In this document: positions 34,483 through 37,999 of the stretch, piece by piece | Numbering within the stretch: the stretch's first letter is position 1 | Layout of the letters: each line of letters opens with the position of its first letter | From: a virus | Taxonomy: Duplodnaviria > Heunggongvirae > Uroviricota > Caudoviricetes | DNA: 41,741 bases | Virus record (IMG/VR): IMGVR_UViG_3300045988_117301 | Reading direction: 5' to 3' (one strand) | Position numbers and translations under genes: made by a program | The notes under the pieces: generated by a model | Told to the model about the DNA's origin: nothing | Databases searched by the model: none | The model's input: only the letters and a program-made list of their open reading frames with translations

Positions 34483-35630
34483 TTGCGCCCCCTTACCTCT
34501 GAAGGGTTCAGCGACAAATTTATGAGGCAGGCCAGTGCCGAAGCATCATTAATATAGTCATACAAGCTAACAGCCAGCGGAGATTCGGCTTTTGCCAACA
34601 TAGGATAAAGCTGCTGCAGCCAGACCTGATGAATTGATGAAATGTAGGAATAGAGAACGCTGGCGTTATGTGCAACGTCGCTCAGTACAGAGGGATTTGA
34701 AAGCTGTTTCTCCATCTGGTTAAAGGCATTGATGTATGCCTCTTTGAACTGGGCAGCACGTTTACCCGTGAACCCCATAGCAAGAAACGCAAAGCCGTCG
34801 CGGGTTATTTGATAGCAAGGTAGTTTGCGGCCTGTGCAATCGGTGTAATCACTCACCGAAAAATTGCGGGCAGTGAATGATGCAGAGCATTCAAGCGTGC
34901 GGATCTTTTTCAGTACATCGTCATGACGTTTGGAGAAGAAGTTGGCAACAGCCAGGGATGAAGTAACAGCCTGACCATCAACGATGGCAATTTCAGGTTG
35001 AGTGAGGGTTGGGATCGTAGCCATGATGGCAGCCTCTTTGGTGATTTTTAATAACTCACCACCAAGGCTTTCCACGACCTTATTGGTGGTGAGACGTACA
35101 GGGGTGGAAATACCGGTCACCAAAGAACCCGGCCCAACCGAAGTTGGCCCTGCACGCCCCACCATAATTTGGGCGTAATGCTGCTCATTACACAAAAAAA
35201 CCGCAAGAGCGCGGTTGTGCGCTTTGGTGAATTCCGGGTTTCCACGCCCGGCACCCGCTTTATAAGGTGCCTGAACAGTGTAACGTCCCGGAATGGCAGA
35301 ATCAATGTGCTGGTGGTCCTTCACACTCAACAAAATCATGCCTGAATTTCCACAAAGGACTAAAGCACTCATGCGGGTAGTCTTTGCGAAGATAGATAAC
35401 GCGCTGTGTTTCTGGCTCCCAACGAATAACATGGACATAAAGCCCTCTTCCGTCACGAAACCAGCGGTTAAGTTCCTGCACAACTCGCCCCCCACAGTCA
35501 GGTAAAGTTCTCTGTGGTTACTTACAGCCAGGTGATTTGGTAATCTGCATTCATACCGTAACAACAGGTGTTCAGCGACACTGACCACCAGCTGTTGCGA
35601 CAAACGGTTATTTGCCGTTAAACTGTTCAT
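34479..35630 (-). CDS. Rha-family regulatory protein with a 200-aa in-frame N-terminal extension of unknown function
   Basis: ATG 35630 overlaps cII-like stop (ATGA); internal ATG 35027 with Shine-Dalgarno AAGAGG precedes the Rha-like part (MATIPTLTQPEIAIVDGQAVTSSLAVANFFSKRHDDVLKKIR...). Confidence 0.6.
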   Translation of the reverse strand: MNSLTANNRLSQQLVVSVAEHLLLRYECRLPNHLAVSNHRELYLTVGGELCRNLTAGFVTEEGFMSMLFVGSQKHSALSIFAKTTRMSALVLCGNSGMILLSVKDHQHIDSAIPGRYTVQAPYKAGAGRGNPEFTKAHNRALAVFLCNEQHYAQIMVGRAGPTSVGPGSLVTGISTPVRLTTNKVVESLGGELLKITKEAAIMATIPTLTQPEIAIVDGQAVTSSLAVANFFSKRHDDVLKKIRTLECSASFTARNFSVSDYTDCTGRKLPCYQITRDGFAFLAMGFTGKRAAQFKEAYINAFNQMEKQLSNPSVLSDVAHNASVLYSYISSIHQVWLQQLYPMLAKAESPLAVSLYDYINDASALACLINLSLNPSEVRGRK

Positions 35631-36178
35631 GCGTTAGTTTCTCCACAGACACAAAACGCCACGACGCCCGGAGCTGCACACTCGCGGGCGTCACTCTTTT
35701 CTGGAGCGCAGAAGATTTTGTAGACCAGTGCTGCATGCTCCTGGAGCTTCGAAATTGACAGATACAACTCATCATTAATTGCTGTCTGCTCGTGTGGCTC
35801 CACGACCCCATCTTCGATTGCCGAACGAATCTGCTTTGAGTAATTCCCGATCTGTTCGATGACTTCCAGCAGGCGCTGGTTTATATCGGCGTTCTCTACT
35901 TCCTCAATTTCAGGAAGCGATACGAACACCCCACCAGCAGACTGTGCGACAGCATCCGCAATGTAGTGAGTGCCAGCCGCGCGCTGTAAAACCATTGCCC
36001 ATCCCAGCGGGAAAATCTGATCGCCATCTGCACGAAGGCGGTTGAATAAAGCGTTCTCTGTTACATCCAGCCAGTCAGCAGCTTCAGCGTAACCCCCAGG
36101 CAATGCCGCGATAGTTTTTCTGACAGCTTTCACGTACCACTCAGGTTGTTTTTCCACTTTCCAATGATGCTTACCCAC
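35627..36178 (-). CDS. CII-like / YdaT-like early regulatory protein
   Basis: 183 aa directly downstream of cro; GTG start with Shine-Dalgarno AGGAGG. Confidence 0.5.
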   Translation of the reverse strand: MGKHHWKVEKQPEWYVKAVRKTIAALPGGYAEAADWLDVTENALFNRLRADGDQIFPLGWAMVLQRAAGTHYIADAVAQSAGGVFVSLPEIEEVENADINQRLLEVIEQIGNYSKQIRSAIEDGVVEPHEQTAINDELYLSISKLQEHAALVYKIFCAPEKSDARECAAPGVVAFCVCGETNA

Positions 36179-36431
36179 GGCTTACCTCCTGTTCCTGTGG
36201 TTTAAACCCATTCTGGTTTTGGCTAGATTGAAAACGTGCCGGATAAAGAATCTGCATTTCGCTGATTTCACCCTTAAAAAAATTGGCCAGACGTTCTGCA
36301 AGATCGATAGATGGAATTTGTTCCAGTCTTTCAATACGACTCAGCGTCGCTGGATTGACCTGAACGCCCGCAGCAACATGCTGCAAAGTAAATCCGTGCG
36401 CCTTACGCACATTCCGTAATGGTGATTGCAT
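36171..36431 (-). CDS. cro: Cro-like HTH repressor
   Basis: 86 aa, XRE-type HTH (FTLQHVAAGVQVNPATLSRIERLE); divergent from cI; Shine-Dalgarno GGAGG. Confidence 0.8.
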   Translation of the reverse strand: MQSPLRNVRKAHGFTLQHVAAGVQVNPATLSRIERLEQIPSIDLAERLANFFKGEISEMQILYPARFQSSQNQNGFKPQEQEVSRG

Positions 36432-36445
36432 ATAACCTCCACATA

Positions 36446-36522
36446 TTGCGTGATGAGCATATTATTTCACGCAAATATTTTGCGCAAGTTGATTTGCTTA
36501 ACGCGCAATAAAGAAATGTAAT
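36446..36522. promoter_or_regulatory. Immunity control region: operator sites TTGC-N7-GCAA (36446-36460, 36494-36508), palindrome CGCAAAtatTTTGCG (36469-36483), PR for cro and PRM for cI
   Basis: Minus strand -35 TTGCGC / 17 bp / -10 TAATAT upstream of cro; plus strand -35 TTGCTT (36494-36499) / 17 bp / -10 TGTAAT (36517-36522) ending a few nt before the cI ATG. Confidence 0.5.
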
Positions 36523-36528
36523 AAACGC

Positions 36529-37221
36529 ATGAACATAGGAAATCGAGTCAGACAACTTCGCCAGGCGAAGAACATGAAAATCGCCGATCTCGCTGAAGCA
36601 ATAGGAGTGGATGCGGCGAATATCTCGCGCCTCGAAACAGGTAAGCAGAAACAATTCACTGAACAAGCCCTGAGTAATATTGCCAGGAGCTTAGGTGTTG
36701 ATATTGCTGATCTCTTTACCTCAGACCTCAAAAGTAATACTGTATGTAAAAACAGTATTAGTGAGGATGTTGCGCAGGTGAAGGATGTATTCCGTATTGA
36801 AATGCTGGATGTCAGTGCCAGTGCGGGAAATGGCCTTATCCAGGGCGGTGATGTCATTGATGTGATTCATGCCATTGAATACAGAACTGATAATGCTGTA
36901 TCGATGTTTGGTGGACGACCAGCAAATCACATTAAAGTTATCAACGTTCGTGGGGACAGTATGTGTCCAACCATTGAGCCAGGAGATCTCATCTTCGTTG
37001 ATATCAGTATCAATCAGTTTGATGGGGATGGTATATATGTATTTGGTTTTGATGATAAAATTTACGTCAAACGACTGCAAATGATACCTGATAAACTGCT
37101 GGTAATTTCTGATAATCAGATTTACCGCGAATGGGGAATTACCAGCGAAAACGAACACCGGTTTATGGTCTTTGGAAAGGTCTTAATCAGTCAGTCACAG
37201 ACCCTTAAGCGACACAATTAA
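36529..37221 (+). CDS. cI: CI-type repressor (HTH_XRE N-terminus, S24 LexA-like autopeptidase C-terminus)
   Basis: 230 aa; N-terminal HTH (MKIADLAEAIGVDAANISRLETGKQ), C-terminal RGDSMCPTIEPGD Ser motif and downstream VKRL Lys; candidate Ala-Gly cleavage site in SASAGNG. Confidence 0.9.
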   Translation: MNIGNRVRQLRQAKNMKIADLAEAIGVDAANISRLETGKQKQFTEQALSNIARSLGVDIADLFTSDLKSNTVCKNSISEDVAQVKDVFRIEMLDVSASAGNGLIQGGDVIDVIHAIEYRTDNAVSMFGGRPANHIKVINVRGDSMCPTIEPGDLIFVDISINQFDGDGIYVFGFDDKIYVKRLQMIPDKLLVISDNQIYREWGITSENEHRFMVFGKVLISQSQTLKRHN

Positions 37222-37242
37222 CCCCCTACCTCAACATCAATT

Positions 37243-37267
37243 AGCCACCAGAAGGTGGCTTTTCATT
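37243..37267 (+). terminator. Rho-independent terminator after cI
   Basis: Stem AGCCACC/GGTGGCT with loop agaa, followed by TTTCATT. Confidence 0.6.
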
Positions 37268-37277
37268 ACCCACCAAA

Positions 37278-37329
37278 TTGCTTATCTCGCAATAAAACAC
37301 TTGCATAATGCGCAACTTCATTTTATCTT
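37278..37329 (+). promoter_or_regulatory. OL/pL candidate: two operator sites TTGCTTATCTCGCAA (37278-37292) and TTGCATAATGCGCAA (37301-37315) with -35 TTGCAT and -10 TATCTT
   Basis: Same TTGC-N7-GCAA motif as in the cI-cro intergenic region; 17-bp promoter spacing; rightward toward the early-left genes. Confidence 0.4.
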
Positions 37330-37740
37330 TCTCTCCAGACCTACAAACAAGGTACTAACAAAATTTGGTTGTAACACGGCGTATGGCACATGCGTCGTTA
37401 GCGGTCTGGGGACGTTAAAGGGGACAATCCACTCCTTGCTCGGGCAAACAAACCAGGTAGCCGGAATGTGCAAGTCAATGAGGATGCTGATAAGACGCCT
37501 AACCAGCGTGGCGATCCGGTTTGACGCCTGGGAAGAGACCAGGGTGCAACGATGAGGGCATTTATGGAACCGCGACAAAGTGTGGTGCCGTAACTGGCTA
37601 AGTGCTCTCAGCGTTGTGGTAATCCGCGAAATGGCGCGGCGGTAAGTATGGCGGGGTTACTCTTTCCCCGTTGAGGACACCGGATTGTCAGGTTGACCAT
37701 ACGCCTGAGTGACAACCCCACCACAACAGCCACTGCTTTG

Positions 37741-37788
37741 GCGGTACCAGTTTGTACACTTGCTTCCGGCTGGTACCGCTCTTTTTAC
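37741..37788 (+). terminator. Strong hairpin plus T-run in the early-left leader (tL-like terminator)
   Basis: Perfect 10-bp stem GCGGTACCAG/CTGGTACCGC with 19-nt loop, followed by TCTTTTTAC. Confidence 0.45.
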
Positions 37789-37875
37789 AAAACAGAGAAG
37801 AGCATCACCGGACGACGGGCTCATAACCCAATCCATCCGGGCGGCTGCCACCGCAGGTGTTCTTCTCTGTTTTGT
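37787..37875 (+). other. Long imperfect inverted repeat (18-bp arms, 17/18 paired, 53-nt structured loop); candidate structured RNA or regulatory element
   Basis: ACAAAACAGAGAAGAGCA (37787-37804) pairs with TGTTCTTCTCTGTTTTGT (37858-37875); no ORF explains it. Confidence 0.3.
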
Positions 37876-37999
37876 GGAGAAACTAACCGCCCCTACGGGG
37901 GCATTTATGGAAATGTAATTGACTCAATAATCGCCGGACGGTGAGGGCTTCCTTTTACCCGAATTCAGCGCGGTGCAGCGCATATACGTGGAGAACAAA

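Follow-up and report, generated by a model that had tools for sequence, protein, structure and literature searches.

The region around the cI and cro genes in the stretch of Caudoviricetes DNA analysed here (41,741 nucleotides, hereafter the window) is a lysis-lysogeny control region of the ordinary kind, belonging to a lambda-like phage of E. coli and Shigella that is very common (mEp460/SfII type). It probably functions as the immunity module of this phage by the mechanism proposed below, in which a CI dimer acts at short symmetric operators on both sides of its own gene. Gene order, protein domains, the sites with their selective conservation, promoter geometry and the boundaries of the module are all observed directly.

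We compared positions 36100–37400 of the window with known phages. The Escherichia phages PhiR40_1 and PhiR55_1 are 100% identical to the window over this interval, followed by mEp460 (99.1%), the Stx2a phages Stx2a_1447 and WGPS2 together with phage 1720a-02 (about 96%) and the serotype-converting Shigella phage SfII (90%). Both cI and cro are annotated in each of these seven phages. The limits of the module are revealed by the heteroimmune Stx2c phage L007, whose repressor is of the e14 type. Similarity between L007 and the window extends up to position 36206 (93% identity) and is found again over 37357–37900 (98.5%), and between these two flanks the phage carries cI, cro and operators that are unrelated to those of the window. 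Since the matches end at 36206 and resume at 37357, the exchangeable immunity module is placed at 36207–37356 (1150 bp), containing most of cro, oR, cI, the cI terminator and oL/pL. An exchangeable module of this kind, here with both junctions (36206 and 37357) mapped against an Stx2c phage, is a characteristic of lambdoid switches. The right flank is common to heteroimmune Stx2c, cdtI, 2H10 and Ayreon phages at 98–99% identity, and the homology shared by heteroimmune phages begins just downstream of pL.

The preliminary description had called this region a candidate immunity specificity. The specificity is real, but it is not rare, being among the commonest in E. coli: of 5426 complete E. coli genomes, 1040 contain the 36207–37356 module with an identity of at least 90%. 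This immunity type, found in about one-fifth of the complete E. coli genomes, is also that of SfII and of some Stx2a- and Stx2k-converting phages.

The divergent arrangement of cro (minus strand) and cI (plus strand) around a 97-bp gap, as described earlier, was confirmed, with the gap (36432–36528) lying between cro at 36171–36431 and cI at 36529–37221. Divergent repressor and cro genes with a short regulatory gap are a hallmark of the lambdoid switch. The cro-like gene, taken from the list of open reading frames, encodes a protein of 86 amino acids with a Pfam HTH_3 domain (E = 5.8e-10), and the same reading frame is labelled Cro in the records of PhiR40_1, SfII and mEp460. Its Shine-Dalgarno sequence, GGAGG, can be read on the minus strand at 36436–36440, where a CC.CC block is conserved family-wide. 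Downstream of cro in the PR operon, a regulator gene on the minus strand (35627–36178) occupies the position of cII. Its product belongs to the Phage_CP76/YmfL family (PF06892, E = 1.2e-14) and the homologue is labelled CII or YmfL in related phages.

The cI gene encodes a repressor of 230 amino acids with an N-terminal HTH_3 domain and a C-terminal S24 autopeptidase domain (Pfam). Residues for self-cleavage are found at Ala99-Gly100, Ser144 and Lys181; the Ala-Gly context and the GDSM motif are present in all 71 distinct CI proteins of the family and the VKR motif in 65 of them. The protein has the architecture of a lambdoid repressor, i.e. an HTH domain joined to a LexA-like S24 domain with an Ala-Gly cleavage site and a Ser/Lys dyad. 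No close homologue of CI was found among solved structures, the best PDB sequence matches having E values of about 2e-4; these include the designed 434-type domain dh434 and UmuD', with ClgR (3f51) at the top. The recognition helix of CI, AN(I/V)SR(L/V)ETGKQK, is kept across CI proteins whose N-terminal domains are only 60% identical. Downstream of cI, an intrinsic terminator is located at 37243–37264 on the plus strand, with a hairpin (37243–37260) formed by a 7-bp GC-rich stem and followed by TTTT, and a terminator is also annotated here in SfII.

The reading frame of cI has a TAA 10 codons before the ATG at 36529, which is the first start codon to follow it; no alternative start lies between the two. 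In some records (mEp460 and Stx2a_1447) cI is instead started at Met16, which would cut into or remove helix 1 of the HTH domain; this residue is a leucine in 9 of the 71 family CI proteins. The promoter map and operator consensus presented here would correct the cI start codon, which is mis-annotated in several records.

For the analysis of the regulatory DNA, 211 loci with a CI N-terminal domain 60–100% identical to that of the window were collected from IMG/VR, GTDB species representatives and GenBank phages. GTDB sampling provides one genome per species and contributed Shigella, Citrobacter, Klebsiella, Pseudescherichia, Buttiauxella and Trabulsiella. The 211 loci yielded 70 distinct oR haplotypes, among which 62 share a common register and 8 are off-register.

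Candidate promoters for cro, cI and the pL operon can be recognized in this set from their fixed geometry. The −35 element of PR, ACTTGCGC, lies on the minus strand (hexamer 36487–36482) within the block TTGCGCAAGT (36480–36489), which is invariant in the 62 in-register oR haplotypes and is also present in the 8 off-register ones; this invariance is explained by the predicted PR −35 element. The putative −10 hexamer of PR is TAATAT (36459–36464, minus strand), of which TA..AT is kept family-wide; the variants TAATAT, TAACAT, TAAAAT and TATTAT occur, always 17 nt from TTGCGC. An extended −10 element for PR (TGA-AATAAT) was also considered and set aside in favour of TTGCGC-17-TAATAT, as its TG is not conserved. 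PRM occupies 36494–36522 on the plus strand, with a −35 hexamer TTGCTT (36494–36499), a 17-nt spacer and a −10 hexamer TGTAAT (36517–36522). TGTAAT is invariant, and all 62 in-register haplotypes have it exactly 17 nt from TTGCnn. pL is predicted at 37301–37329 on the plus strand, with TTGCAT (37301–37306), a 17-nt spacer, TATCTT (37324–37329) and a start at about 37336. In 40 haplotypes of close relatives, the block 37317–37330 around the pL −10 hexamer is invariant at 13 of 14 positions, the remaining one (37319) differing in 3 of the 40. More widely, a TAnnnT hexamer is found 17 nt past TTGCnn in all 127 family haplotypes with two oL sites. In a related prophage, RNA running in the direction of pL has been detected downstream (PMC7719688).

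A consensus promoter scan called none of PR, PRM and pL, which agree with the sigma-70 consensus at 7–8 of 12 positions, and this weak agreement counts against the promoter assignments. The only plus-strand promoter in oR called by the scan, TCCACA-16-TATTAT (36438–36465), is not conserved, its −35 hexamer being replaced by TCCTTT, TTCCAA or CCCTTT in relatives.

The position of PRM just before the cI ATG, proposed earlier from the window itself, holds across the relatives. TGTAAT is separated from the ATG by 6 nt in 67 of the 70 oR haplotypes and by 7 nt in the remaining 3, and the sequence of this gap takes 18 forms. Likewise, the reported lack of a Shine-Dalgarno sequence for cI extends to the whole set: GGAG, GAGG, AGGA and AAGG are all absent within 16 nt of the ATG in 70 of 70 haplotypes, leaving 67 of them with a −10 hexamer placed for a start at the ATG and with no ribosome-binding site of this type. 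In lambda the corresponding sequence is TAGATT-TAACGT-ATG, and the lambda PRM mRNA begins at the A of the AUG; the e14 repressor gene reads TTTAAT-TTCGTT-ATG. We infer, with good support from promoter geometry and conservation, that the PRM message starts at the cI ATG and is leaderless as in lambda, in agreement with the preliminary description. Such a reading is ordinary for lambdoid repressors.

It is improbable, though worth considering, that the cI message is instead a longer transcript translated by Shine-Dalgarno-independent initiation, arising from a CII-dependent PRE-like promoter within or beyond cro or from TCCACA-16-TATTAT, with TGTAAT conserved for some other reason. The consensus scan calls TCCACA/TATTAT and not PRM, but TCCACA is not kept in relatives, while TGTAAT, its 17 nt to TTGCnn and its 6 nt to the ATG are essentially fixed even though the 6 nt themselves vary. 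Lambda is known to make a leadered cI message from PRE as well, and a gene at the position of cII is present here; however, an establishment transcript of this kind could coexist with a leaderless maintenance transcript as it does in lambda, and the leaderless reading of the PRM message is not contradicted by it.

The sites on which CI is proposed to act follow the motif TTGC-N7-GCAA. The window contains 6 exact copies of this motif against 1.63 expected, and 3 of the 6 fall within the 206 nt of non-coding DNA flanking cI (Poisson P for at least three, about 9e-8). Within the 97-bp region, the repeated copies reported earlier amount to one exact and one near-exact site, not to several exact ones. 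The near-exact one, operator A (TTGCGTGATGAGCAT, 36446–36460), reads TTGC-N7-GCAT with one mismatch and is OR1-like, lying over the −10 hexamer and the start site of PR; its TTGCG and GCAT are invariant in the 62 haplotypes and its spacer is variable. Operator C (TTGCTTAACGCGCAA, 36494–36508) matches the motif exactly and is OR3-like, overlapping the −35 hexamer and the spacer of PRM, and it too combines invariant tetrads with a variable spacer. Taking the 62 oR haplotypes together, none of the 16 tetrad columns varies as against 13 of 14 spacer columns (Fisher P about 1e-7, a value that overstates independence and is not an independent-sample probability, as the compared sequences share descent) and 43 of 67 other intergenic columns.

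Beyond the cI terminator, the two further candidate operators that had been described on a pL-like promoter were borne out by the comparison, with both motifs exact, the −10 hexamer conserved and its 17-nt spacing fixed. L1 (TTGCTTATCTCGCAA, 37278–37292) has nearly invariant tetrads among the 40 haplotypes of close relatives, whereas those of L2 (TTGCATAATGCGCAA, 37301–37315), which overlaps the −35 hexamer and the spacer of pL, are fully invariant. In these 40 oL haplotypes 1 of 16 tetrad columns varies, compared with 12 of 14 in the spacers and 21 of 41 in the flanks. Exactly two TTGC-N7-GCA(A/T) sites, 22–24 bp apart and no more than 170 nt past the cI stop codon, are found in 127 of 136 family haplotypes. 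The presence of a second operator cluster on pL, beyond the repressor gene, is a further lambdoid feature.

Invariant outer tetrads with a free centre are the classic signature of an operator for a dimeric HTH protein, which is how we would read all four sites. Since −35 hexamers fall on the left tetrads of C and L2, part of the conservation of these tetrads could reflect promoter constraint. Carried further, this would mean that the TTGC tetrads are mainly −35 elements and not repressor contacts, the repressor reading something else, for instance the palindrome of oR (described below) or the spacers. The −35 hexamers TTGCGC (PR), TTGCTT (PRM) and TTGCAT (pL) do correspond to TTGCGCAAGT and to the left halves of C and L2, respectively. 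We consider this explanation quite unlikely, however, because the GCAA right tetrads of C and L2 are invariant although they fall within promoter spacers, which should be free of promoter constraint, and because A and L1 likewise combine invariant tetrads with a free spacer without overlapping any −35 element. In addition, spacers that vary freely cannot hold the specificity.

The palindrome noted earlier between cro and cI is present as CGCAAATATTTTGCG (CGCAA-N5-TTGCG) at 36470–36484, and the centres of A, the palindrome (B) and C are spaced exactly 24 bp apart. It is confined to one clade. Members of the mEp460/SfII/Citrobacter clade retain ACGCAA but differ at each of the five N5 positions, giving seven N5 sequences (ATATT, TTATT and GTAAA among them), and the left arm is absent from the other clades. 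By its position the palindrome is a doubtful candidate for an equivalent of OR2; its half-sites are of inverted polarity and its left arm is missing in other clades, and it is not a third canonical operator. The invariant TTGCGCAAGT may also serve as the left half of a weak site, B* (36480–36494), centred at −42 of PRM, which is the position of OR2 in lambda. B* has GATT as its right half in the window, where other clades have GCAT or GCTT. B* is degenerate in the clade of the window, so that a PRM-activating site, if CI must activate, is not evident there. Three tandem symmetric operators were not found in OR, where only A and C are canonical and family-wide; OR is made up of two canonical sites and a variable centre.

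Least probable of all is a switch with two specificities, like that of P2/186-type or phi11-type phages, with the four TTGC-N7-GCA(A/T) sites being chiefly those of Cro and CI acting through the clade-specific palindrome or another half-site spacing, a reading for which one may cite the lack of BLASTP similarity between the CI N-terminal domain and Cro and the separate selective signature of CGCAA-N5-TTGCG within one clade, but against which stand the facts that oL has canonical sites only and yet must be repressed by CI in the lysogen, that clades without the palindrome have nearly the same CI recognition helix, and that CI and Cro both carry a recognition helix of the xAxxxSRxE type.

In the mechanism that we favour, CI combines an HTH_3 N-terminal domain of the 434/P22 type with a self-cleaving S24 domain resembling that of HK022, and its dimer would bind the 15-bp symmetric operators TTGC-N7-GCA(A/T), whose half-site centres are 11 bp apart, i.e. 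one helical turn. By binding site A over the −10 hexamer and start of PR, CI would repress cro together with the CII-like gene, the rha/antirepressor region and the replication genes. Site C, located over the −35 hexamer and spacer of PRM, would act like OR3, with excess CI, or Cro, turning cI off. Because C sits on PRM as L2 does on pL, spanning −35 to −21, it should repress PRM and not activate it. L1 and L2, which are 23 bp apart past the cI terminator, would block pL. Transcription from PRM would begin at the A of the cI ATG, or immediately beside it, and produce the leaderless maintenance message, and RecA-stimulated cleavage at Ala99-Gly100 would lift the repression. The binding of the proteins, the transcription start sites and the preference of each protein for particular sites are in this scheme predicted from the sequence, and any activation of PRM by CI would be hypothetical. 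A lesser point is that OR, with two canonical operators, may operate by purely negative autoregulation, as against the three-site cooperative and activating design of lambda.

The pL operon has features of its own. No open reading frame of note is listed in 37336–37972, where an N-type antiterminator would be expected as the first pL gene. SfII, SfV and SfIV have been reported to be without N, cII and cIII, with cI and cro noted as present (PMC3851460). The folding of the pL leader RNA is far superior to that of shuffled controls (z = −5.7). The predicted pL transcript has near its 5' end a highly conserved, structured non-coding element of 257 nt (37363–37619, plus strand), for which RNAalifold gives 34 pairs, including 6 that show compensatory double changes. 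The element is common to heteroimmune lambdoid phages, in which the homology starts 27–45 nt past their differing pL promoters. It is also present in P1, P7 and D6, directly after a tRNA-Ile and before ban, and the ban operon of P1 that bears it is C1-controlled; in Uetakevirus it directly abuts a tRNA-Arg. A search of the leader against Rfam returned nothing credible at the gathering score or at E values up to 5, and ARAGORN found no tRNA in it. Comparison of 37300–37980 with the nun-cI-cro region of HK022 by blastn, as a search for an HK022 put-like antiterminator in the pL leader, gave only chance matches and this candidate was dropped.

Following the element, a variant of the small RNA found at the DicF position can be delineated at 37613–37786 on the plus strand. 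Over 123 nt its first part (37613–37735) shares 89% identity with the sequence that immediately precedes dicF in the Qin prophage, and the DicF position itself is occupied by the hairpin 37741–37779 with TCTTTTT, in which the variant ends. It is homologous to the 3' part of sRNA-17, a 193-nt RNA of a related E. coli K1 prophage that was defined with the help of RACE and a Northern blot (PMC7719688). sRNA-17 extends from the 3' border of the conserved element as far as the leader terminator, in the direction of pL as judged from the orientations of the probe and the RACE primers, and the 'promoter' fragment used for it is the conserved element itself (PMC7719688). The pL operon, in which no N gene is visible, would read straight into the 37363–37619 RNA. 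It is possible, although we regard it as rather doubtful, that this RNA represents a novel class in the early operons of phages, acting for instance as a cis-acting put-like processive antiterminator or as a processing platform that releases the DicF-position small RNA.

The switch thus appears to be a conventional lambdoid one of a very common immunity type, whose operators seem to be undescribed so far. We found no description of these operators in the literature on mEp460, SfII, ST64B, serotype-converting phages and the TTGC/GCAA motif, and no binding or start-site data for the window phage or its close relatives in the searchable literature. For a relative of phage mEp460_4F5, the operator specificity was recently stated to remain 'unknown' (Genome Research 2025, PMC12315714). 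The operator consensus could be used for the prediction of superinfection immunity and of cross-repression between co-resident prophages, and the promoter and operator map for the design of reporters of prophage induction, toxin phages included.

Among known systems, e14 (YmfK/YmfT/YmfL) and Qin (DicA/DicC, and the dicB operon with dicF) resemble the window in the flanking ymfL-like gene and in the pL leader. e14 also shares the arrangement of a −10 hexamer, 6 nt and the ATG at its repressor gene. The YmfL-like neighbour raised the possibility of e14 immunity, which was rejected: e14 is heteroimmune, because its repressor YmfK is only 23% identical to CI and its intergenic repeats are of a different, TGTAC type. 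Qin has the 89% identical segment upstream of dicF at the same position of the operon, but the hairpin at the DicF position in the window differs from DicF and gives no match to the Rfam DicF family.

The 434 and P22 c2-type repressors and the all-alpha Cro proteins are similar to the proteins of the window in their fold class, HTH_3 being found in both the CI N-terminal domain and Cro, although the sequence similarity is weak (E about 2e-4). Operators of 434 resemble those of the window in having conserved outer bases and a free central spacer; their consensus, ACAA-N6-TTGT, differs in half-site and spacing. HK022 CI is the closest experimentally studied repressor that we found, with 43% identity to the CI of the window (E = 4e-49), mostly in the C-terminal cooperativity and cleavage domain. 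The N-terminal DNA-binding domains of the two are dissimilar and therefore the operators differ. HK022 is further distinguished from the window by its put RNAs and Nun.

Lambda itself differs from the window in several details. The operators are 15 bp long here (TTGC-N7-GCAA) and 17 bp in lambda; OR has two canonical sites 48 bp apart with a variable centre, against three sites 23–24 bp apart in lambda; the PRM-proximal site is centred at −28 and not at −19; and OL has two sites in place of three. In contrast to lambda, the window is without rexAB, N and cIII, its CII-position protein belongs to the CP76/YmfL family and its Cro is an HTH_3 protein of 86 amino acids. The overall design is nevertheless shared, with divergent cI and cro genes separated by about 100 bp (97 bp in the window and 100 bp in lambda), a repressor combining an HTH domain with a LexA-like self-cleaving domain, symmetric operators over PR, PRM and pL, the PRM −10 hexamer 6 nt from the ATG that in lambda gives a leaderless cI mRNA, and, allowing for orientation, the order cI, terminator and oL/pL. 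Conceptually, the switch of the window adds nothing to the lambda paradigm.

Of 5426 complete genomes of E. coli, 1040 carry the immunity module (36207-37356) at no less than 90% identity, almost always as a single chromosomal copy, and it therefore ranks among the commonest lambdoid immunities. Several GenBank and RefSeq records, including those of mEp460 and Stx2a_1447, give Met16 (36574) as the start of cI. With Met16 as the start, helix 1 of the CI HTH domain would be truncated, and this position is occupied by Leu in 9 of the 71 members of the CI family. The cI start that has support is the ATG at 36529, and not 36574. The predicted operators near pL, L1 (37278-37292) and L2 (37301-37315), are separated centre-to-centre by 23 bp in the window. 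For mEp460 the distance is 24 bp and for SfII 22 bp, a difference due to indels in the A-run lying between L1 and L2, and any cooperative pairing across the two sites would need to tolerate a shift of ±1 bp.

The start of the predicted pL transcript is occupied by a conserved, structured non-coding element of 257 nt (37363-37619, plus strand), for which no Rfam family was found. Compensatory double changes are seen at six of its base pairs, and at least 120 contigs of IMG/VR contain an exact copy of its 22-mer core. The element is common to the phage of the window and heteroimmune lambdoid phages, and is also carried by the ban operon of P1/P7/D6, directly after tRNA-Ile, and by Uetakeviruses, directly before tRNA-Arg.

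The segment from 37613 to 37786 (plus strand) is assigned as a DicF-position sRNA variant. It has 123 nt with 89% identity to the sequence that precedes dicF in Qin, followed on the 3' side by a hairpin of 10-12 bp and TCTTTTT. The segment shares homology with the 3' part of an sRNA published from E. coli K1, sRNA-17, and the 5' end mapped for sRNA-17 falls where the conserved element ends on its 3' side (PMC7719688); this coincidence suggests that the 5' end of sRNA-17 is generated by processing rather than by a promoter. An extended and almost perfect inverted repeat, ACAAAACAGAGAAGAGCATCACC ... GGTGTTCTTCTCTGTTTTGT (37787-37875), and a short GC hairpin on its 3' side (37888-37903) immediately precede the HD-hydrolase gene and look like candidate bidirectional terminators of the pL operon, in which no N gene is visible in the window.

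On the minus strand, Rfam matches to C4 antisense RNA (35082-35169, 83.6 bits) and isrK (35194-35270, 67 bits) both fall within the Pfam 'Ash' portion of a 383-aa ORF annotated as 'Rha', a call which is possibly over-extended. The resemblance of this arrangement to P1 immI (c4-icd-ant) and to isrK-anrP of Gifsy-1 suggests a second immunity layer, in which an antirepressor would be under RNA control.

The e14 element of E. coli K-12 (L372, 2690-3530) and Stx2c phages (for example phage L007, 1540-2760) share the right flank with the window, and L007 also the left, but their repressor is unrelated and their intergenic repeats are of the TGTAC...GTACA type. A strong TTGACA/CATAAT pL lies at the same place as in the window, and their repressor gene again shows the -10/6 nt/ATG arrangement.
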